Origin: a virus
Taxonomy: Duplodnaviria; Caudoviricetes
DNA length: 53,162 nt
IMG/VR virus record: IMGVR_UViG_3300036766_000094
Coordinates: 1-53,162 of that record
Direction: 5' to 3' (one strand)
The notes beneath the pieces were generated by a model. It worked only from the letters and a program-made list of their open reading frames with translations, made no database searches and had not been told where the DNA came from. Positions 1,998 through 48,400 of this stretch are shown piece after piece (position 1 is the first letter of the stretch; the number at the start of each line of letters is the position of its first letter). The position numbers were made by a program, and so were the translations under genes.

Positions 1998-2138
1998 TTA
2001 TTCGTTTCCTCCAGGGCCGCCAGTACCCGAGCGGCCTTGCGAGAACTCGCGCCACGTCAGCCAGCGCGTTGAGCGCCACCGCAAACCCAGGACGCAGGCC
2101 AGTACGACGACAATCAGCCAACGGATCGTCAGACTCAT
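1998..2138 (-). CDS. 46-aa small membrane protein (not in ORF track)
   Basis: MSLTIRWLIVVVLACVLGLRW..., GGAGG upstream, stop 3 nt before the next start; inside a GC-rich island. Confidence 0.5.
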   Translation of the reverse strand: MSLTIRWLIVVVLACVLGLRWRSTRWLTWREFSQGRSGTGGPGGNE

Positions 2139-2166
2139 GCTACATGCCCTCCCCGCTCAGTGCGGT

Positions 2167-2349
2167 TCATCGGGACGCTTCCCGCCGAATGCGAAGAAAC
2201 TCCTCCATCTCAGATTCCAGCCACGTGGACGCCCGTGTGCCATCATCACCGTGCTCCATATATTCGTGCCGACCCCGAAGCGTCGGCGTGACGGAGAACC
2301 ATTTCCTCACCAATGCAACGGCACGCGGCGGGTCACAGCACGCGCACAA
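2167..2349 (-). CDS. hypothetical protein in GC-rich island
   Basis: Co-oriented ORF packed between neighbours. Confidence 0.4.
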   Translation of the reverse strand: MCACCDPPRAVALVRKWFSVTPTLRGRHEYMEHGDDGTRASTWLESEMEEFLRIRREASR

Positions 2350-2680
2350 GCCATCCTCCCGCAGAAAACTCCCGTAACTCCCAAGCCAAGCGAGCCCACC
2401 GCAAATACTTCTGCTGAGTCTCGTAGGATGATTCGTCCCACGGTCCCCAATGCAGTTTGGCGGCGAACTTGTCCTCCGCCTCGTTGATCTGCCGTCTCCG
2501 GTCGGCCATGTACATGCGTTCCGCCAACTGTTCGGCGGTGCCGATGTCCGCTGGTGCGGTCTGCGCCTGCTCGGCCTCGCGGACCAGCAATTCGACGGCA
2601 GCGCGTAATGGCGCTATGTCAGACTGGCTCAACGCCACCAACGGCACCAACCGCATGATTTCCTCGCCCCGCGCGCTCAT
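2333..2680 (-). CDS. hypothetical protein in GC-rich island
   Basis: ATGA overlap with the epimerase stop; GC-rich codon usage. Confidence 0.6.
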   Translation of the reverse strand: MSARGEEIMRLVPLVALSQSDIAPLRAAVELLVREAEQAQTAPADIGTAEQLAERMYMADRRRQINEAEDKFAAKLHWGPWDESSYETQQKYLRWARLAWELREFSAGGWLVRVL

Positions 2681-3567
2681 CGTTCAATCTCCATATGTCT
2701 CTTATAATAGAAAATTGTATTATCTAATCCATATTTCCAACCAGCCATATCTGTATAACAAGAATTCATAGCAACAACAACTGACCTTTCATGTTCGCCG
2801 GCGCGCATTGGAACCTCAACAATATCTCCTCGTCCAATACGTTCAATAATGTCATTAGCGATGTCCCAAACTCTCAATCCAATACCAGAACCAACTTCAA
2901 TTGGATTTGGGAATTTTATTCCACTGGCTACTCGTTCCAGTGTTTCAACTAACATACGTGCCACATCAACCACATAAATCAAATCCATTGTTCCACAATT
3001 ATCTACGCCACCATAGACAGTAATTGTTTGGTTACGTAATGCTTGATTAATAAATGTGGGGACTATCTTCTTGATTTTACCCCATTTTTGTCTGGGACCA
3101 TAAGCATTAAATGCTCTAACGACCGCGATAGGAGTATCGAAATTGTGTTGATACATCAAAGCATAACGTTCAGCAGCAGTTTTAGATATGCTATATGTGT
3201 TGTTCTCAAAATGATTACCAACTCCAATAATTACACAAGGAATCTTAAAGTTATTGACAGCATTCAAAATGCTTAATGTTCCATTAACATTAACATCATT
3301 TGTTAGTTTTGCTTGGGATATATTCTCAGAAGTACCTAACAATCCAGCTAAATGGATGACTCCATCTACTGTTTGAACAGCACTATAAATTGCTGCTTCG
3401 TCACGAATGTCGCAAACGAAACAGTTACATTCATCTAAATATTCAGTTTCATCAGTTCGTGCTATTCGTCTTACTGTTGTAGTTACTTCAATACCTAATG
3501 ATAACAATTTCTCAATTACATACCCTGCGATAAATCCTGTGCCGCCTGTTACCAATACACGTTTCAT
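2677..3567 (-). CDS. NAD-dependent NDP-sugar epimerase/dehydratase (extended SDR)
   Basis: TGGTGFIA Rossmann motif, VIHLAG, YSISK (YxxxK), RAFNAYGP, DLIYVVD. Confidence 0.93.
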   Translation of the reverse strand: MKRVLVTGGTGFIAGYVIEKLLSLGIEVTTTVRRIARTDETEYLDECNCFVCDIRDEAAIYSAVQTVDGVIHLAGLLGTSENISQAKLTNDVNVNGTLSILNAVNNFKIPCVIIGVGNHFENNTYSISKTAAERYALMYQHNFDTPIAVVRAFNAYGPRQKWGKIKKIVPTFINQALRNQTITVYGGVDNCGTMDLIYVVDVARMLVETLERVASGIKFPNPIEVGSGIGLRVWDIANDIIERIGRGDIVEVPMRAGEHERSVVVAMNSCYTDMAGWKYGLDNTIFYYKRHMEIER

Positions 3568-7033: not shown

Positions 7034-7127
7034 TATATCGGGTGAGAGTCGAACTCACAATTCACTATTTATTAGAATCGCCATACTAATAAATAGCACT
7101 CCTATCCAATTAGAGTAATCCGATATA
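7034..7127 (-). ncRNA. tRNA-like RNA with a 12-bp extended stem in place of the anticodon arm
   Basis: Acceptor TATATCGG/CCGATATA, D-loop AATTGGAT, T-arm GTGAG-TTCGACT-CTCAC, central GCTATTTATTAG/CTAATAAATAGT. Confidence 0.75.
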
Positions 7128-13102: not shown

Positions 13103-13312
13103 CTAGACTGTGCCTTGTAAAGCTATTGCGGCGTTAGCTGTCATTACTGCTTCACGTATCTTCCGAATAGCCGCCGTTTGATCTGCACAAGCTGGTGTGT
13201 TAATAAGAACAACAGTTGCAAATTCCCTGGCGGCTGCTCTAATATTGTTGTACAATGGAATTTGTTCAGGCCGTGGAGAATGATATGTGAAAATCTCTTC
13301 CACGTTAATCAT
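13103..13312 (-). CDS. Acb2/Tad1-like cyclic-nucleotide sponge (anti-defence), putative
   Basis: FTYHSP..EQ..Y..IR..A...AIRKIREAVMTANAAIA helical hairpin pattern recalled for this family. Confidence 0.6.
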   Translation of the reverse strand: MINVEEIFTYHSPRPEQIPLYNNIRAAAREFATVVLINTPACADQTAAIRKIREAVMTANAAIALQGTV

Positions 13313-13566
13313 GTGGTTGTGTCCAACCTTTCAGCCTTATGAGCCAATCCTAAAGCCGCCAAAGCACCACCAATATTAGCGACGATTGTACTAATTCTAT
13401 CAGCTTGCGTTGGAGCAACTAAACCAACGGTGGCAGTTACTAGTCCAGCGTGAGCAACCGACCAAAGTATTGCCCCGGTAATCGTCTTCCAGCCACGACC
13501 CAAAAATGAAAACATTTTATTCTCCCTTTTAAATGATCCATGCATCTTCTCGCACAATGTATCCAA
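13309..13566 (-). CDS. small two-helix membrane protein, holin candidate (start probably MFSFLG)
   Basis: GWKTITGA motif, two hydrophobic segments, LGLAHK end; near the endolysin. Confidence 0.6.
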   Translation of the reverse strand: MDTLCEKMHGSFKRENKMFSFLGRGWKTITGAILWSVAHAGLVTATVGLVAPTQADRISTIVANIGGALAALGLAHKAERLDTTT

Positions 13567-13975
13567 TTAGTGCTGATGTTACGTTATATTCTCTCGCCAG
13601 CCGCCTGTAAAATCTTTTGTAGTATCCTTTTGTAAGACCACAAGCTACTACACGCCTTCTAATTTCTGTTACTTGGCTAACTGTCAACTTTGCTGAAATC
13701 CCGCGTCTTACATTTTCTTTGTGAGAAACTACTTCTAAGTGCATTGGATTGCAACAAGAGTGATTTCTGCATAGATGATCTAACTCCATTCCTTCGGGTA
13801 TAATTTCTTGAAGCGCTTCATACATAACTCTGTGTGTACGTCGTAATTTTCTATGAGATCTTATATAACCATAGCCATCTTTTGTGGCGCCTTGCCACAC
13901 CCAGCATTCGTTTTCATTAACAACGCAACGAGACTTGATAATTTCTGGTAATTGAGATTTAAAGTTAGTTTTCAT
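13529..13975 (-). CDS. HNH endonuclease (HNH_3 type)
   Basis: CWVWQG...GYG...HRV...LDHLCRN..C.NP.HL....EN. Confidence 0.92.
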   Translation of the reverse strand: MKTNFKSQLPEIIKSRCVVNENECWVWQGATKDGYGYIRSHRKLRRTHRVMYEALQEIIPEGMELDHLCRNHSCCNPMHLEVVSHKENVRRGISAKLTVSQVTEIRRRVVACGLTKGYYKRFYRRLAREYNVTSALIGYIVREDAWII

Positions 13976-16729: not shown

Positions 16730-16770
16730 GTGGGGATGTTACTGACACCGTTTTATTGGTACATCCCCAC
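16730..16770 (-). ncRNA. hairpin unit 2 (boxB-like position)
   Basis: GTGGGGATGT/ACATCCCCAC. Confidence 0.65.
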
Positions 16771-17089: not shown

Positions 17090-17106
17090 CGTGTCAAAAT
17101 GACACG
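17090..17106. promoter_or_regulatory. palindromic operator-like site
   Basis: CGTGTCA-AAA-TGACACG; near copy at 21217-21232. Confidence 0.6.
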
Positions 17107-21216: not shown

Positions 21217-21232
21217 CGTGTCATAATGACAT
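21217..21232. promoter_or_regulatory. palindromic operator-like site upstream of promoter
   Basis: CGTGTCA-TAA-TGACAT, flanked by TTGGCAG/CTGCCAA. Confidence 0.6.
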
Positions 21233-21320: not shown

Positions 21321-21614
21321 TACCATGTGGTCCGCCCCAGCCTTCCACGCCGGGCCATCCGTGCCGGCAAGGATAGGGGGGGGCCACCGTGGCCCTCGGT
21401 ATTAGTATTGCGGACTAATAGTCCTATGATATAATATATTATCAAATGAGTTAGTTTCTTATTCTTTTCTTTTTTATTTTTTTTTTTAATATATAAGAAC
21501 AACAACCGCCCCAAATATTACTATTTATTTTCAATCTAGGGGGGTAGGGAGCCCCCCCCCATCCGCGCCGGCAAAGTATGCCCGGTAAGGATGGTAAGGG
21601 CGGACCATATGGTA
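21321..21614. repeat. long imperfect GC-rich inverted repeat around an AT-rich core; candidate replication origin or genome end
   Basis: TACCATGTGGTCCGCCC...GGGCGGACCATATGGTA, continuing via CCGGG/CCCGG, GCCGGC, GGAT/ATCC and G-run/C-run; poly-T core. Confidence 0.8.
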
Positions 21615-21632: not shown

Positions 21633-21680
21633 AAAGATTAGATTAGAAAAAGATTAGATTAGAAAAAGATTAGATTAGAA
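21633..21680. repeat. three tandem 15-bp repeats AAAGATTAGATTAGA(A), iteron-like
   Basis: Direct reading. Confidence 0.85.
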
Positions 21681-21748
21681 ATTAACTGGATTGAAAAAGA
21701 AATAAAGTTCACATATAGTTGTGTTCGCTGTATTGATTTTGGAATTGT

Positions 21749-21768
21749 CAATTAGAATATTCTAATTG
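21749..21768. repeat. perfect 20-bp palindrome
   Basis: CAATTAGAATATTCTAATTG. Confidence 0.8.
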
Positions 21769-21881
21769 TTCCTATCTTTTTGTCCATTTCGATTTGTCAA
21801 AGAATTGTCAAAGAAAAAAAGGCTCATTTTATCCGTTGAGGATTGACCAAACTAACTAAGGGGCAAGGCAACTAGGTTTAG

Positions 21882-22418
21882 TTAAAACTTCGTTCCCATC
21901 GCATTGAGCGCCAAAACTGCTTCCACAATTGCGGCGTTCTTTGCGGCGCGGTCGGAATCGGAGAGTTCCGACTTGACTTCCGACATAAGGGAGTCAAGTG
22001 TTGCCGAAACTGCCGCTTTCTGTGCGCGAGTCGAAACTTCCGGACGGACTGTCTTATCCGCCGCTGAAGTTGCCGCCTCTTGTGCTTGGCTTGTCCAGTC
22101 CGCCAGCGTTCCGGCGTTAACCAATTCCGTTTCGGGAATCTTCAACTCCGAAACCGCCGCGCGAGCCGCCAAACCCTTCGCTTCGTTAACGGCCCCGGCA
22201 ATCACTTCGGGAACGGAAATGTCGAAGGAAGCGCAGTAGTCTAGCGCGTCCGCGTCGCTCTCGAATTGAATTCCCTCAACGATAAAGGGAATGTTACCGC
22301 GTGCATTGTTCGGAGATTCTTTGCCGGACTTCTTGTCTTTCGTGACTCCAGACGTTGCCGTCACGAATTCCGCAAAATGGTCAAGGGTTGCCTTGACTGC
22401 CAGCTTGATGCTACGCAT
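21882..22418 (-). CDS. GC-rich Ala-rich hypothetical protein, first gene of the early arm
   Basis: GAGGAG RBS and own promoter; no recognisable domain. Confidence 0.8.
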   Translation of the reverse strand: MRSIKLAVKATLDHFAEFVTATSGVTKDKKSGKESPNNARGNIPFIVEGIQFESDADALDYCASFDISVPEVIAGAVNEAKGLAARAAVSELKIPETELVNAGTLADWTSQAQEAATSAADKTVRPEVSTRAQKAAVSATLDSLMSEVKSELSDSDRAAKNAAIVEAVLALNAMGTKF

Positions 22419-22507
22419 AAGAAAAACTCCTCTAGGTGTATGATGATACGGCGCCGTATCGTACCTACCGTGTCACTTCGCTACACCTAGCGCCTTGCCC
22501 CTAGTCA

Positions 22508-22521
22508 GTTGTCAAAGAGCG
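22508..22521 (-). promoter_or_regulatory. boxA-like antitermination site
   Basis: CGCTCTTTGACAAC a few nt downstream of the predicted start site; two more TTCTTTGACAA copies at about 21794-21815. Confidence 0.65.
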
Positions 22522-22535
22522 TTCAAGCCTTCCTC

Positions 22536-22564
22536 AATCTAGCACCAGCCGCGCCGTTTGTCAA
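22536..22564 (-). promoter_or_regulatory. sigma70-type early promoter
   Basis: TTGACA-17 nt-TAGATT with extended TG. Confidence 0.85.
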
Positions 22565-23163
22565 GTGTGGCGCCGGCGCAACGTGCTAGCTCGCTACCTT
22601 TTGCTGAGCGAAAAGCCACCGCGAATGATCAACGTTTCACAGGCGCATTCCGTTACTGGCTTTCTGCACTGTGTACAGACTGGAATCCGCTTTGGGGCTG
22701 GCATCTTTGATACCTCCAGGTTGAAGTCTCAGGACAAAGGAAAACTATTGCAAGTTTAATGCCAAACTCTTCAAGGTGGCTTTTTGCGAAAGGAATTAAT
22801 AAGTATGGCGCGCACGCCTCAACTGTTGCACACGAACGCCACAGTATTTTGCAATGCAAACAATTGCGCGACTCCAGCTTGACTAGTTGAGAATGAAAAT
22901 CAAAATCAACTAGCGCACCGAATGACTGACCAGCGTACAACAATGACTAAGGTCTAATCATATACTCTAGTCAACTTAGACCGGGGGAGGGGTAAAATTC
23001 ATCTATGAAAAACCCCCTAACAGACCTCAACAATTTGTTTAATAAAAATTTTTTGTAGTAAAATTTATTTTTTTGTGTATATTCTTTTTTTCTTTATCTT
23101 AATTCTTCCTATTCCTCTTTTTCTTCTCGTTCCTCTCAATACCTTGAAGCCACCATTTGCCTC

Positions 23164-23192
23164 TTGTGCCGGCGTTCGTATTGTGTTATATT
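23164..23192 (+). promoter_or_regulatory. promoter for the virion arm
   Basis: TTGTGC-17 nt-TATATT followed by GAGAGG, as in the 16935 promoter. Confidence 0.65.
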
Positions 23193-23281
23193 GAGAGGTC
23201 ATCTTTAGAGGTCGCTAGGGACGACGGTCTGGACGGGATGGTACGTTCAGACCCATTCGTGTGTATTATATTGAGGAGAAT

Positions 23282-25657
23282 ATGCATTTTAGTAAATTTC
23301 AAAACGCAGCAAGAAAATTAGGTGGTTCTATATTTACTGTAGTTCCACCTATTAGTGGTAGTGTCGATTCTTCTAAATGCACAGTAGGAGTGTCTGCTTC
23401 TACAGTTGTGTCTGGTTCATTAATTACAGTTACATTAACATTAAAAGACGCCAACAATGTTCAATTAACAAGCGCGGCTGGTTTAACTATAGTCCCAACG
23501 AAAAGTGGTGGTTCTGCAACCGGAACGTTATCAAGTGTAACTGACGTTGGAAATGGTACATTAACTTGGACATATACGGGAGTCTTAAAAGGAACAGCTC
23601 AAACGTTAGGTTGTACAATTAACGACGTTACAGTTACTTCAACATTACCGACTTGTAGTGTTACAGTAGGAGCAATTGATAGAACAGTTTCAGTAGTAAC
23701 TGTATCTGCTACAAGTAGAATAAATGGAGGAGCAGTAATCATATGTACATTACAAGCTAAAGATGCCGCTGGTAATAATCTAACTACTGGCGGCTCTACT
23801 ATTGTTATTAGTAGTTCTGGTGGAACTTCTACAGGTACATTTGGTGCTACAACAGATGTTGGTAATGGAACATACACAAGAACATTTACACCAACTGGTC
23901 CAGCTTTAGGTGATGGTACAGCTACAACATTAACAGCTACAATTGGCGGGCAATCAGTTACTACAACAATGCCTACAATAGTTGTTCGTGGTGCTTCTTT
24001 GAGTTTGAGTACAGTTACGTTAGCATCAAGTTCAGCAGCGGCAGGTGGTTCAAACGTAACAGTAACACTAACAGCAAAAGATTCAACTGGAACCCAAATG
24101 CCAAGTGGTGGATTAACGGCATTGTTCGATCATAGTGGAGGAACAGCAGTTATAAGTATAGGAAGCGTTACAGACAATAATAATGGTACTTACACAGCGT
24201 CAATAACACCAACAACAGAAGGTACAGCAACTACATTAAGCGCAACTTTAAATAGTTCTACAGTAACTAGCAGTATGCCGACGTTCACGGTGACGGCGGC
24301 GTTCGACTACTACCTCGCCACGACCGGCAGCGACGGCAACAACGGAACGAGCCCGTCCACACCGTTTAGGACGTGGGGAAAGATGTGGTCGGTCGTGACG
24401 GCAGGCAAAACCGTGCAGGTGGCAGACGGTTCGTATACCTCAGCGGACCCTTCCGTAGAAAAAGCGGGCACTTCTGGAAGTCCGATTGTTGTTTCGGCGG
24501 CCAATGATGGTGGCGCGGTCATCACGGACGGGCTCGATCTACGCGGTAACGCCTACTTGACATTCCGTGGGTTTAAGATCACGGGCGTCTCGGCTGCGGT
24601 TACTTTGGTAAGCAACGGGGTCGGGAAGCCGACGCACCACTGCATCTTCCAGCGGATTGGGTTCCAGGCGACCGACACGACGCTCAACAACAACGCAGCT
24701 TTCGACCTTAGCGATGGCACGCATCACTGTCTGCTAGAGGATTGTTGGGGCTGGGGCGGCGGGCGTTATGTGGTGATGGCCTACGGCGGCCCCGGCGGCA
24801 GTCCGCCGAACACGACCTGCGACTATAACACGTTCCGGCGCCTCGTGCTCCGTATGGGGCCATCTACGAGTACGTCGGGGAACCCGCAGGCGGCGCTCGC
24901 ACTCTACTACGCCAGCCACAACATCGTGGAAAATTGCATCGCGATAAACGGGCGGCCCGCGAGCGATTCTTCTAACGCCGGCTTCTATCTGACCGGACAC
25001 GCGCCGCCGCCTAACACCGACGACAACAAGTTCTATGGTTGTCTTGTGGTAGATCACGATGGGTACGGCTGGTATGTGGACGAGAGTGGTGCCGTCGCCA
25101 ACGATAACGTACTGGTGGATTGTGTGGCGTGGGACTGTGCCTCGGGTGGCTTTACCACGGGCGGCGGCACGATTAACCCGTTCACTTTGGATCATTGCAC
25201 GGGTGGCGCGAACACACTTGATGGGTTCGAGTTCTTCGCCAGTACTGTGGTCATGACCAATAACGTCTTCAAAGGCAACGGCGGCTTTGGAGCGAAGAAG
25301 TCTAGTAGTACACTTTCAGTTAACGACCATAACGGATATTTTGGGAACGCCTCGGGGGCGCGGTCTGGATTCTCGGCCGGTACGGGCGACCTGACGTCCG
25401 ATCCGGTCCTTTCCTACATTGCACGGATTGAAGCGGGGTCGCCTTACAAGAACGCCGGTTCTTCCGGTGACATCGGCGCGAACGTAGTCAATCGCTACGT
25501 AGATGGCGCGCTCACGGGTGACGCGCTGTGGCCCTGGCCCTACGAGGCGCGGATTCACGCCGACATGGCCGCGGACGATAATCGCGGCTTCGCGGCGGTG
25601 GGCGAAACACTGACGCACTACGTCTGGAATTATCTCGGGAACGGGAGCCCGTACTAA
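23282..25657 (+). CDS. virion surface/receptor-binding protein: three invasin-type Ig-like repeats + right-handed beta-helix domain
   Basis: Repeated TLxxKD...GG...TDxGNGTYTxT modules; YYLATTGSDGNNG.S.STPF.T then pectin-lyase-like repeats; ATG at 23282 follows GAGGAG. Confidence 0.8.
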   Translation: MHFSKFQNAARKLGGSIFTVVPPISGSVDSSKCTVGVSASTVVSGSLITVTLTLKDANNVQLTSAAGLTIVPTKSGGSATGTLSSVTDVGNGTLTWTYTGVLKGTAQTLGCTINDVTVTSTLPTCSVTVGAIDRTVSVVTVSATSRINGGAVIICTLQAKDAAGNNLTTGGSTIVISSSGGTSTGTFGATTDVGNGTYTRTFTPTGPALGDGTATTLTATIGGQSVTTTMPTIVVRGASLSLSTVTLASSSAAAGGSNVTVTLTAKDSTGTQMPSGGLTALFDHSGGTAVISIGSVTDNNNGTYTASITPTTEGTATTLSATLNSSTVTSSMPTFTVTAAFDYYLATTGSDGNNGTSPSTPFRTWGKMWSVVTAGKTVQVADGSYTSADPSVEKAGTSGSPIVVSAANDGGAVITDGLDLRGNAYLTFRGFKITGVSAAVTLVSNGVGKPTHHCIFQRIGFQATDTTLNNNAAFDLSDGTHHCLLEDCWGWGGGRYVVMAYGGPGGSPPNTTCDYNTFRRLVLRMGPSTSTSGNPQAALALYYASHNIVENCIAINGRPASDSSNAGFYLTGHAPPPNTDDNKFYGCLVVDHDGYGWYVDESGAVANDNVLVDCVAWDCASGGFTTGGGTINPFTLDHCTGGANTLDGFEFFASTVVMTNNVFKGNGGFGAKKSSSTLSVNDHNGYFGNASGARSGFSAGTGDLTSDPVLSYIARIEAGSPYKNAGSSGDIGANVVNRYVDGALTGDALWPWPYEARIHADMAADDNRGFAAVGETLTHYVWNYLGNGSPY

Positions 25658-26478
25658 TGGCCTACCGTTCGATAGCCTCGAATGTGGTGAAGGACACCAC
25701 GCTTACCATCACGAAGCCTACGGGTACAGCATCCGGGGATATCCTGGTCTTCGTCATCTGTAATGACTCGAATACCACGCCCGCACCGAGTTGGCCGACA
25801 GGCTTCGTAGAGATTACGGGTTCGCCACAGCACTCGACAGCGGACGGCATGTATTTTAGCGCCGCGATTAAGGTGGCTGGAGGAAGCGAGCCCGCCAACT
25901 ATACTGTAACGGTCGCCACCGCGCACATCGGTGCCATCGTGGCACTCTCGGCCTGCAACAATACCGGGGTGCCTTACCGTTCGAGCGTCGGCGTCAACAG
26001 TTCCGCCAACGCGTCTCCCTGGAGTGCAGTAAGTGCTGCCTTTGGTTCCGTGACGGCACTAGTGTGCGACTTCGTTTTTCTCATGGGTTCGGATGTTACC
26101 GCTGCCGCTGCTGTGGTTGGGACAGCGCCCTCCGGATTCACGAAGCGGGCCGATTTGAATGACAGCGGGCCGGGCTTTCTCAACATTATGGTGGCGACAC
26201 AAGACAGCGTCGCCAGTGGTGCAACCGGCGCACTCACTGGGATAGGCACAGCGGCGGGCAAGTCGGCGGGTTGGGGATGCTTTGCCATCGCGCTGGACCT
26301 CACGAGTCAGCCCCCCGCAGGCGCGGGCGTTGTTCCATTTAATAGAAATATATCATCTGGTGGAATGAGAGAATTTAGTGGTGGAATTAGAGCATATCAT
26401 AGAAGGCATCAAATTGTTGTTCCTCTACTTCCAAAGGGTTGGCAGCGGCGAGCTTCTGGATTATGCGTCCGCGTTTAA
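25657..26478 (+). CDS. putative minor virion protein (beta-rich)
   Basis: TITKPTGTASGDILV start typical of phage tail-associated modules; TAATG coupling. Confidence 0.6.
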   Translation: MAYRSIASNVVKDTTLTITKPTGTASGDILVFVICNDSNTTPAPSWPTGFVEITGSPQHSTADGMYFSAAIKVAGGSEPANYTVTVATAHIGAIVALSACNNTGVPYRSSVGVNSSANASPWSAVSAAFGSVTALVCDFVFLMGSDVTAAAAVVGTAPSGFTKRADLNDSGPGFLNIMVATQDSVASGATGALTGIGTAAGKSAGWGCFAIALDLTSQPPAGAGVVPFNRNISSGGMREFSGGIRAYHRRHQIVVPLLPKGWQRRASGLCVRV

Positions 26479-45441: not shown

Positions 45442-48400
45442 ATGACACTTCCTCGAATAGTAACATCGCCTACAGAACAAACAGAACAAGATGGCCTGCT
45501 ACCAAGAATAGTTACTGGACATACTACTCCAGATATTCCTGCTCGTCCGCCTCGTCCGCCTGTAGAACCAATTCGCGGCGGAGGGTCTAGGAATTTTGAA
45601 GCGGTTACTGGAACTCACGAAGATGTGACTCCAGAAGAACGTGCTGTCCAACTACGTATTGCAAGACAAATTCCTAGTTATGTTGTTGGAGCCGCTAGAA
45701 TTTTCCCAGCAATTGCTCTTCAACAACTTAACCATCAAATGCTAGCTGGCGCTTATGTTGCTTTCAATAGTCCAGAGTTAATTTATAAAGTTGTATTTGG
45801 TGTACCTTCTGCTGAACAATTACAAGCTCGTAGAGCTGAACTTATAGCTAGTCCGGATTTGATGAGTCGTGAAATACATAGACAATCTTCTACTAGATTA
45901 CAAACAGTTGCGTTATCTAAAGGGGCTGTAACATACGTTCCTGCAACGGCTCAAGATGTAATAAGCGGGTTGGATGCTCAAATAGCCGAACAACACAATG
46001 TTGAATTATCTGCTTCTGCTGAAGACAGGCGTGGCGTAGATGTCTTAAATAGAGTATTACAAAATCGTCCAACAACTTCACGATTACGTGCTGCCACTAA
46101 CCTAGCACGAGAAGTTGGTTCATTTGCTGGACCGCAAGCTCTTTATTTATTTGGGGCTAGAGTAGCTAATGACTTTCGTAATGCTATTAAAATGAGCAAC
46201 GACCCAAATGCAACTGTCGAAGAAACTGCTGATACATTTCATCAAGCAGCACAAGGTACAATTATTCTAGGCGCTTTGGGTGGAGCAGTTAGAACTAGAA
46301 TCAACAGAGCTAGAGGACTTACAGAACAAATTGAAGCCGCACGAATTCCTGGAAATGAAGCAGAAGTTAGTAATATGATTGGTGTCCGTTTAAGTCAAAT
46401 TAGACAAAGCGAAGGATTAGTTGAAACTCCTGTCGCTCAAGCTGAATTAAATCTACCAAGAGCTAACCTTGCGGCTACGTTAATTCGCGCTCATACTGAA
46501 TTAAGGCCAGATGGGCTTACTGTAATTCCTGGTGTTGATAATCCATTAAGCGCATTACGTTTCATGCCAGTAGAAGCTCGTCCAGCATTTAATGAGACGA
46601 TGGCTTATCATAAGAAAAGTCGCACTTTGTATATGTTTGGGCCGCAGAATCCTAATAATACAGCCGCGATTAGAACTCAGATAGCACAAGATGGATTTTA
46701 CACAGGACAAAGAATATCTTATGAAGGTGCTGATTATGTTTATGTTGGGCGTTTAACTAGAAAGACTGCTAGGATTGCAACACGTTACGACAATCCAATT
46801 ACTCCTGTTGGAGAAGCTCAATTACCTGAGCAAGCACTTCCTGAAGTATCTGGAAGACCAATTCCTGGGACGGTTGTTGGTGAGGTTACACCAATTGAAC
46901 CAATTGTTACTCCGCCTCCTGGAATTCCAGAACAACGTACAGTAAACTTGTCAGACATACGTATAACGAACACAAGTGAAAATCTACGTCTAGACCGAGT
47001 GACTCAAGACGCGGCATTCAATCTGTACAAGCAATGGAAATCACAACAACCAGAAGGAATGGGTGATAGGGAGATTAATGCATTAGTAGATTTGTTAGCC
47101 AATACTTTAGGAATTCCAAAAACTCAAGTTCCAGCTTTACGTCATTTCATAGTTGGAAGGGAAGCCACTGAATTAGAACACATGACTCCAGAAGAAGATA
47201 GAGCTTGGATTGAAAATTTCAATAATACTCGCGGTGGGGATTTGGGTGAATCTGGTACTTCTGTAACACGTGAAATTATTAATCCGTCAGGTTTAAGGGG
47301 TCAAGCCGCGATTGATTATCGTACATTAGAACGTGTCAAAGAAATGACACAATTTGAAGCTGAACAATTAAAAGGTACTAAGGTTGTTGACGAGTCCGGT
47401 AAGCCTTTAGTTGTTTATCATGGAACTCCAGAAGTTCGTGAGCAACCATTAGGTCATCCTTCATTAGCGTTTGACCCAACTAAAACTGGCCCTAATAATT
47501 TGTTTGGGCAAGGGGCTGGTTATTTTACAGAAAATCCTAGAGTTGCGGGTGGTGAAGGTGAAAATATAGAATCTGTAGGTTATGCTACTCCGAAAGTGAC
47601 AATCAGCGATAAATATAATGAGAGTTTAATTGGTTTACATTTGGCTGAAGACCTTGTTGATAATACAGGAAGTTTCTATCGCAATCATAAAGTTGGTGAA
47701 TATATCACGTACAATATGTTAAGCGATGCTGATATGCTTGGTTATGATGTTATAAAGACTGTTGAGCAAGGAACTAGAAATATATATCTTAATATGGCTG
47801 GTTCTCAAGTAATCCCAGTTCGTCTTGATATTAGAAATCCGTTTGACATTGAAAGTGATATGAGCTTAACAGAAATTACAAGAATTATGAGAATTGCTCA
47901 GCAAATGTTTACTGCTCAAAATGTACATGACCGTTTAATATATACACTCAATTTATTCCGAAGTAACAAGGCTGAAGATGCTAGCATAGATTTGACAGGT
48001 GAACTTGTATGGAATTCGATTGCGGATGCAGTAGAAATCGAAGGTCGGTATCCAGGAGCTACAAACAAAATTCTTCGAGCTGCCGGCTATGATGGCATCA
48101 CACATATAGGAGGTGTTGGTAAAGTAGAACACCGCGTTTGGATTCCATTTGACCAATCTCAAATTCATTCTGCTTGGAGTCCAGACGTAAGCAAAATTGA
48201 AACGTCACAACGTGACATATTGGAATTTGAAACACTTAAGAATAGTGCGCTTTCAAATGGTCTAGCTGTAACTCAAGTTGGAATTGGTTATGAAATACGG
48301 TCCGGAGATAATGGTGCTTTGTTACATAGAATAGAAACTAATGACCCGAATCAAGTAAGAAGCTTTATCAATAGCGTTAGTCAAGCTAAAGGTGAAGAAT

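Follow-up and report, generated by a model that had tools for sequence, protein, structure and literature searches.

Why should a phage gene be enclosed by two sequences that can pair with each other across its whole length? The question is raised by a locus of IMG/VR record IMGVR_UViG_3300036766_000094, a 53,162-bp stretch that represents a whole virus (completeness rating, 100%); we call this stretch the window. On its minus strand, a gene for a 178-aa protein lies between the two arms of an inverted repeat. An earlier note on the sequence had described a first early gene enclosed by a long leader-trailer duplex, like an rRNA processing stem, and all five parts of the underlying observation were found where that note had located them. 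Our answer is tentative and, in our estimation, falls just short of being probable: the arms would form an RNA helix that serves as an RNase III-type processing or end-protecting element, possibly together with Nus factors and boxA. The gene and its two arms are as follows.

22515-22485, minus strand: leader arm, an inverted copy of the trailer, in the 5' untranslated region (UTR)
22418-21882, minus strand: enclosed open reading frame (ORF), 178 aa, pI 4.9, alanine-rich
21877-21843, minus strand: trailer arm, beginning 4 nt past the stop codon, with three bulges (1, 1 and 2 nt)

The two arms are indeed inverted copies of each other. Cofolding of leader and trailer yields 31 bp, comprising 29 Watson-Crick and two G-U pairs, and all 31 leader bases are paired because the four indel bases bulge, as 1+1+2, on the trailer side. 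The arms are ~600 nt apart and are restricted to the 5' UTR and to the first 39 nt after the stop codon, a placement that favours the proposed element and that would set them just outside the footprint of a terminating ribosome. Neither arm folds on itself or has dyad symmetry, and neither gave an Rfam match at the gathering threshold or at E <= 5.

The complementarity is also statistically significant. In a self-blastn analysis of the window, the arm pair ranks third of 829 inverted pairs, with 30.8 bits and 82% over 39 columns, four of which are gap columns. Among the top three pairs, only two have arms less than 1 kb apart, the leader/trailer pair being one of them, and the leader used as a query against the whole window gave E = 0.004. 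The duplex formed by the flanks of the ORF (127 nt upstream versus 82 nt downstream) has an energy of -64.0 kcal/mol, a value reached by none of 1000 dinucleotide shuffles of these flanks (-37.4 +/- 4.4 kcal/mol). Once corrected for composition, the flank pairing has a z of -5.8, the most extreme of 72 genes (next, -3.1; median, -0.14). A second putative gene-in-stem, in which 22787-22770 would pair with 22625-22608 around a 36-aa ORF, was rejected (z -0.23; 188 of 500 shuffles as good).

We then placed the arms in the predicted transcript, whose other elements are given here in the order of transcription.

22564-22536, minus strand: promoter P1, TTGACA, 17 nt, TAGATT, with TG before the -10 (10/12 hexamer matches)
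22530-22525, minus strand: 5' strand of helix H1, AGGCUU, at the predicted 5' end of the transcript, pairing with 21825-21820
22490-22432, minus strand: local hairpin within the 5' UTR, with CTAGGTGTA/TACACCTAG as closing stem and its end 1 nt upstream of the Shine-Dalgarno sequence
22431-22427, minus strand: Shine-Dalgarno sequence AGGAG, with the ATG at 22418-22416
21825-21820, minus strand: 3' strand of H1, GAGCCU, running into seven U (21820-21814)

Sequences of the type TTGACA-N16-18-TAGATT occur twice in the window, versus 0.05 expected, and the second copy (21195-21167) lies ahead of the next gene block. P1 is of the strong sigma70 type and lies 20 nt upstream of the leader arm, which is in favour of the proposed element; its spacing would set the start of the transcript near 22530-22528. 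Just upstream of P1, the 36-aa ORF (22594-22704, minus strand) has a strong GGAGG site and a CxxC...CxC pattern.

In agreement with the earlier note, folding of the sense transcript predicts a long duplex between leader and trailer. This helix is present in both the minimum free energy and the centroid structures of the 721-nt sense RNA. In the ensembles, the main helix (22514-22492 with 21870-21843) has pair probabilities of 0.74-1.00, and those of its 23-nt core are ~1.0 whatever start or end was tested, in four versions of the transcript. The 3' region by itself is less structured than its shuffles (z +1.24; of 200 shuffles, 184 gave an equally good or better fold), which also favours long-range pairing of the trailer. 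H1 is less secure. Its pair probabilities are 0.68-0.90 with a start at 22530 and 0.74-0.82 with a start at 22529, but it comprises only 6 bp, which could be chance alone, and it hinges on the predicted start. Between H1 and the main helix is a 10 x 18-nt internal loop, in which positions 22524-22516, about ten bases that include the 5' part of a boxA-like site, are predicted to be unpaired.

It had also been suggested that end-to-end pairing might control translation. The alternative local pairing described in the earlier note does exist: CTAGGTGTA (22490-22482) and TACACCTAG (22440-22432) form nine perfect bp beside AGGAG. The segment 22490-22485 (CTAGGT) is predicted to prefer this local hairpin, with a probability of 0.92 versus 0.08 for pairing with the trailer ACCTAG, and the probability of the local hairpin is 0.90-1.00 across all transcripts tested. 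However, the unpaired probabilities along AGGAG are predicted to be 0.79/0.04/0.02/0.04/0.20 with the trailer and 0.80/0.05/0.03/0.05/0.21 without it. Since the trailer thus leaves the accessibility of the Shine-Dalgarno sequence unchanged, and the arm itself is off the ribosome-binding site, translational gating is unsupported. The pairing of the 3' UTR in the icaR message of Staphylococcus aureus reportedly covers the ribosome-binding region. In contrast, the phage leader arm is 54-84 nt upstream of a Shine-Dalgarno sequence whose predicted pairing ignores the trailer. What the two systems have in common is a 3' UTR that can pair with the 5' UTR of the same message; in icaR, RNase III is involved and translation is controlled, according to a passage of PMC3868564.

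The leader arm begins inside a boxA-like site, and additional boxA-like sequences are present beyond the trailer.

22520-22509, minus strand: boxA-like GCTCTTTGACAA, at about +10 from the predicted start, its last seven bases being the first seven of the leader arm
21815-21794, minus strand: two tandem TTCTTTGACAA units (period 11, 2.0 copies, 100% match)

The overlap of a boxA-like site with the first bases of the arm, as earlier described, is formed by GCTCTTTGACA (22520-22510). It matches 10 of the 11 positions of GYTCTTTAANA, the gamma-proteobacterial boxA consensus given in a passage of PMC5725501, which may not be that of the host. The single mismatch, at position 8 in GCUCUUUGACA, is G for A, the same G as in the Bacillus subtilis consensus. 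The rrn boxA consensus sequences are UGCUCUUUAACA for Escherichia coli and AUGAUCUUUGAAA for B. subtilis in the portion of PMC13753749 available to us, and the core of the leader site matches that of the latter, which again may not be the host's, at eight of nine positions. The site is predicted to be single-stranded and lies between the promoter and the leader strand, both of which favour the proposed element.

The further copies after the trailer were recovered as well. CTTTGACAA occurs three times in the window, in all cases on the minus strand of this region (22517-22509, 21813-21805 and 21802-21794). This count alone is not significant, as 12 of 100 shuffles reach three, but the clustering is notable. 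Each of the tandem TTCTTTGACAA copies matches GYTCTTTAANA at 9 of 11 positions and is devoid of the 5' G; they are weaker boxA-like sequences. With the relaxed motif GYTCTTTRANA, we found four matches versus 0.96 expected (three of 100 shuffles reach four). Two of them are on the transcribed strand of untranslated leaders, namely the leader site and GTTCTTTGAAA (16725-16715), the latter separated by 5 nt from a preceding 10-bp hairpin and located ahead of tRNA-Lys, an arrangement that also speaks for the proposed element. The remaining two fall within the coordinates of the terminase and portal ORFs, antisense in the case of the portal, and are probably chance matches. On the minus strand, GTTCTTTGAAA and the hairpin region 16732-16770 belong to an untranslated stretch of ~500 nt before tRNA-Lys (16467-16395), and the neighbouring segment 16775-16870 is strongly structured (z -4.7).

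After the trailer, an untranslated stretch of ~800 nt is opened by the two TTCTTTGACAA units, and protection from Rho would make sense there. No intrinsic terminator was found on the minus strand between 21000 and 23400. The end of the trailer region also differs from an intrinsic terminator in that it has no short-loop GC-rich hairpin before the U run and folds worse than its shuffles. These features bring up the idea of a transcription switch, in which the trailer, once it emerges, would pair with UUGACAA at the 3' side of the boxA-like site as well as with the 5' end of the transcript up to the seven U, and would thereby strip any Nus complex or form a terminator that has the leader-trailer helix for its stem. 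In that case, transcription from P1 would stop near 21814 if antitermination were not reloaded at the new boxA-like copies. The predicted 5' AGGCUU does pair with GAGCCU directly before the U run (P 0.7-0.9), the leader arm and the boxA-like site overlap by 7 nt, no ordinary terminator follows the gene, and the two boxA-like copies start right past the U run. However, we know of no terminator with a 700-nt loop, although no search was aimed at one. Moreover, the switch would depend on the 6 bp of H1 and on a predicted start site, and the large internal loop parts H1 from the main helix. We consider such a switch very unlikely.

The processing or end-protecting element that we prefer would work as follows. 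Host RNA polymerase would initiate at P1, near 22529, and the leader segment 22514-22492 (extendable to 22485) would remain largely free until the polymerase passes the stop codon. It would then pair with 21877-21843, and the whole coding region would become the loop of the resulting helix, which has bulges and a length of 25-31 bp. Helices of such length are the kind of substrate cut by host RNase III in rRNA precursors and in T7 early RNA. A cut by RNase III would release a one-gene message from the flanking RNA; cut or uncut, the message would have base-paired ends, and we propose that it would therefore be shielded from both 5'-end-dependent and 3' exonucleolytic decay. The boxA-like element, predicted to be single-stranded, may load NusB/S10, which would retain the leader close to the polymerase while the trailer has yet to emerge, in line with what is proposed for rrn operons; such loading would also let transcription proceed into the ~800-nt untranslated stretch. 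In its fullest form, the rrn logic would be adopted as a whole for a protein-coding gene: boxA and Nus factors hold the leader, the helix zips, RNase III excises a 'panhandle' message with protected ends and antitermination carries the polymerase through the structured stretch. We regard this complete version as rather improbable.

How close is this layout to known systems? Leader-trailer helices are textbook features of rRNA precursors, and phage RNase III sites are local hairpins. In rrn operons, the order is promoter, boxB, boxA and boxC, with boxC in the leader strand of an RNase III-cut helix of 25-40 bp for 16S rRNA and 27 bp for 23S rRNA; a second set of box elements is present upstream of 23S, and in one model NusB-bound boxA retains the leader close to the RNA exit channel for as long as the trailer has not emerged, all as described in a passage of PMC10250234. 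Similarly, the phage has complementary flanking sequences that form a long helix (31 bp) with G-U pairs, the order promoter, boxA-like site and leader strand, and boxA-like copies after the trailer, comparable to the second box set before 23S. Unlike the rrn helices, that of the phage encloses a protein-coding message rather than a stable RNA, i.e. a 178-aa ORF with a Shine-Dalgarno sequence and without an Rfam family. The phage boxA-like site has G at position 8 and overlaps the arm, whereas in Enterobacteriaceae the rrn boxA is 18-19 nt upstream of boxC. The likeness to an rRNA processing stem holds for helix length and for the order of promoter, boxA-like site and leader strand, but not for boxC, for spacing or for the nature of the enclosed gene. 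The layout resembles the rrn leader-trailer/boxA family without being a member of it.

The first early gene of T7 lies between two RNase III sites. As in T7, whose early RNA is synthesized by the host polymerase and cleaved into separate units (at R0.3, R0.5, R1.1, etc.), the phage message might be cut out of a longer RNA. In contrast with the T7 sites, which are local hairpins of ~50 nt between two genes, the phage half-sites are 600 nt apart and would make up one site, so that cutting, or tying together, would affect the two message ends simultaneously. The passage of PMC8708148 that deals with R1.1 reports that the stems left after RNase III cutting protect the T7 messages. Our literature search, which did not cover subscription journals, found no phage message enclosed by a leader-trailer helix.

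Several points weigh against the proposed mechanism. It rests on folding predictions and on the statistics of one genome, its start site is a prediction only, and a loop of 600 nt has to close during its translation by ribosomes. The leader has no motif resembling boxC, as judged by eye against the motif in the passage of PMC10250234, and the boxA-like site departs at position 8 from a gamma-proteobacterial consensus that may not be the host's. In addition, GC-rich windows at 24-26 kb match the raw duplex energy in a sliding null (-65 to -74). We therefore rejected raw energy as a measure, and only the composition-corrected value makes the gene stand out. The pairing around the gene at 2167-2349, with a raw energy of -64.1, was discarded for a z of -1.0. 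Finally, the opposite strand also forms the duplex: the core has -41.0 kcal/mol on that strand versus -47.0 on the coding strand, and the whole region -269.5 versus -276.7. The coding strand is favoured by 6 kcal/mol because both base differences between the arms give G-U pairs there (2/2). This bears out the earlier claim of G-U pairs on the coding strand; the evidence is weak with two sites only, and if both differences are transitions this outcome has a chance of ~1 in 4.

That the duplex is nearly equal on either strand would also be expected of a DNA-level element, in which the arms would delimit a segment that inverts, or a cassette that moves or recombines, through the action of a site-specific recombinase or a transposase. 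The Hin, Gin and Cin systems have ~30-bp inverted repeats that flank a short invertible segment, as in this locus, and 31-35-bp arms around ~600 bp are within the size range of Gin/Hin-type segments. The GC-rich orphan gene between the arms looks foreign as well. The ORFs of the window were called heuristically (n=74); Pfam was applied to 74 proteins (73 of the 74 ORFs and the 36-aa ORF) and PHROGs to 58 (57 of the 74 and the 36-aa ORF). No recombinase, integrase or transposase was detected among either set. The other signatures by which the earlier note proposed to recognize DNA-level elements were not found either. No direct repeat that could represent a target duplication abuts the arms, which differ in this respect from the ends of a transposon or a miniature inverted-repeat transposable element and are present in two copies only in the window. 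A scan of IMG/VR with a 16-base core of the arms returned one unrelated single site. We looked for a flipped form in the contigs of two DNA runs. The contig covering 21652-23400 has one orientation and no joint, and the second run (X2) matched only a low-complexity 31-mer. The contig evidence is weak, since rare variants are lost from contigs and the run could be that of the source sample. The GC-rich island extends ~400 nt past the leader arm and is thus not delimited by the arms. In contrast with Hin/Gin/Cin, the sites are not dyad-symmetric, a second orientation was not seen and no tail-fibre gene lies inside. We give little credence to an element acting on DNA. Placement in the UTRs, a trailer without competing structure, one-sided bulges and G-U pairs on the coding strand argue rather for the RNA level.

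The core motif of the leader arm, GGCAAGG and GCTAGGT separated by 1 nt (22499-22485), is found once more in the window.

17036-17020, minus strand: second copy of the leader-arm core motif, GGCAAGG, 3 nt, GCTAGGT, in a promoter-proximal structured leader

None of this composite motif is expected (0.00 in 100 shuffles, versus the two copies). The second copy lies some tens of nt after a TTGACA-17-TAGAAC promoter-like site on the minus strand. At 17.0 kb, the complements of both motif halves are within 60 nt, which counts in favour of the proposed element, and the 131-nt region around it folds with a z of -3.0. The 22.5-kb and 17.0-kb leaders also have in common the 9-mer GAACGCTCT and the promoter flavour GGCTGGT..G-TAGATTGAG. 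Homology of the two leaders over their length was rejected, as they align poorly and share short motifs only; hence, common ancestry is not shown. These observations suggest a small family of promoter-proximal stem elements, of which the one studied here is split across a gene. Such a family fits RNA stems of the T7 kind, and it also fits a relic in which a gene has landed inside a stem.

The region of the second copy has other features of its own. In segment 16945-17105 (minus strand), 17061-17048 and 16989-16976 pair perfectly into a stem of 14 bp, and a T-rich run, GTTTTTGGG, is also present; another TG-n-TAGATTGA promoter-like site comes next, at 16952-16932. A large inverted repeat with 64-nt GC-rich arms (21321-21384 and 21551-21614; 48 of 64 Watson-Crick pairs) flanks a 166-nt spacer whose GC content is 18% over 21400-21499. 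It would form a giant hairpin on either strand (z -7.8 and -7.2), without G-U strand bias (5 versus 3), and next to it, at 21633-21681, are 3.1 perfect copies of a 16-nt tandem repeat. The inverted repeat may represent a replication origin or, within the untranslated sequence that separates the two early promoters, a large hairpin of RNA.

The relic view holds that the helix has no present function, being either the remnant of a promoter-proximal stem (cf. 17105-16945) whose loop received or captured the gene or an inverted duplication that arose when a GC-rich cassette was acquired. The enclosed gene is nearly an orphan and lies in an island of 51-63% GC in a genome of 37% GC, the leader core motif reappears in a compact stem region, and the two substitutions and three indels by which the arms differ would be compatible with drift. 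However, the arms are sharply confined to the UTRs, from 4 nt after the stop codon on, and the trailer is unusually free of competing structure. In addition, the four indel bases all bulge on one side, leaving the leader fully paired, and the two leaders align poorly beyond their short motifs. We think that a relic is unlikely.

The early promoter and stem-loop (PeSL) elements of T4-type phages are direct repeats that mediate recombination. In contrast, the phage copies around the gene are inverted and complementary, are two or three in number and have low overall similarity. The resemblance is in their recurrence: the TG-n-TAGATTGA promoter type and the stem motif recur at 22.5, 21.2 and 17.0 kb, just as the PeSL motifs recur in early or variable regions and flank novel ORFs according to passages of PMC2839356 and PMC4122927.

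Recurrent motifs near promoters may also be binding sites for proteins. The arms and the TTGACAA repeats could be DNA operators for a phage or host regulator, possibly one that loops the DNA around the gene. In the window, 5 of 18 TTGACAA sites are on the minus strand within 21745-22564 and only one of these has a usable -10; two copies are in tandem at 11 bp, i.e. one helical turn. GGCAAGG..GCTAGGT reappears near a second promoter, and early promoters have other palindromes. However, the motif halves are separated by 1, 2 or 3 nt in three copies, a variation that a helix can absorb as bulges but that DNA-binding proteins do not usually accept. Pfam and PHROGs revealed no regulator gene, and operators would leave the exact placement in the UTRs unexplained. 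We thus find operators quite improbable as an explanation of the arms.

Palindromes of the type GTGTCA-N-TGACAC were observed at 17091-17105 and 47333-47350 (two versus 0.02 expected), and 21217-21231 has an imperfect version. That at 17091-17105 overlaps a -35 hexamer, and the imperfect one is ~20 nt upstream of promoter P2; these palindromes look like operators. At 21750-21767, an 18-bp perfect palindrome, AATTAGAAT/ATTCTAATT, covers the -10 of a TGGACA-16-TAGAAT promoter-like site (21786-21759).

We also analysed the enclosed gene. Its product had no Pfam, PHROG or PDB match. A word-indexed protein search returned the protein itself only, and in the Atlas it matched only unnamed viral clusters (score 0.90), with a poor model (predicted local distance difference test, 0.49). 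Among 1.84 billion representatives, it has three real relatives, P0002-P0004, with 53, 52 and 32% identity, which are known as proteins only. Two weak hits were rejected as spurious: P0005 is an RTX-repeat protein, and P0006 has no Pfam hits other than sub-threshold ones. Protein-guided scans of IMG/VR found no locus for the 178-aa protein, the alignment A1 or P0002, and two scans of JGI metagenomes found none either. A GTDB genome scan with P0002 returned only a 36-residue partial match in an unrelated metagenome-assembled genome (L003). No RNA datasets containing the region were found.

Is this the first early gene, as claimed? It is the first gene behind the strong sigma70-type promoter and the first sizeable minus-strand gene past the divergent junction at ~22950-23260, and its early expression is deduced from this position. 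It would thus be the first early gene. Leftwards from ~22.9 kb, the minus strand codes for an SNF2 helicase, nucleases, a family-A polymerase in pieces, a primase and two tRNAs. The structural genes are on the plus strand rightwards from 23,261, including those for a tail fibre, the terminase, an SU10-type portal and its adaptor and the capsid protein. RNA polymerase, sigma factor, integrase, invertase and transposase families were not found among the window proteins by Pfam or PHROGs; hence, the virus is apparently a lytic phage, podovirus-like and reliant on the polymerase of its host. It is distant from known phages. blastn and tblastn gave no match to GenBank phages, the portal protein of the closest one is only 20% identical (one record), and neither the neighbouring 154-aa protein nor the SNF2 helicase retrieved a related viral contig.

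The genome has ~37% GC, with GC-rich islands at 2-3, 21.9-22.7 and 24-26.5 kb. In the outer two islands, GC contents are 55% (2001-3000) and 56-59% (24001-26000). The latter takes in the C-terminal beta-helix portion of the tail fibre (798 aa) together with the gene that follows it, a pattern suggestive of module exchange. On the minus strand, 13103-13312 codes for a 69-aa protein with an Acb2/Tad1 hairpin domain (E 1.2e-12), a family of sponges for defence signalling nucleotides, and an HNH endonuclease gene (13529-13975) adjoins it. At 7034-7126, also on the minus strand, ARAGORN predicts a 93-nt tRNA-like gene with a four-base anticodon (atta), which has no Rfam support at the gathering score.

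If the element works as proposed, one long-range site would be enough for a phage to cut out a single early message and to protect its ends, and boxA/Nus loading may aid the formation of such a helix on translated RNA. It would be a compact natural part for message stabilization and a test case for the rrn 'looping' model beyond the ribosome. If the arms are instead a relic, they still mark how an orphan gene came to lie inside a regulatory stem.

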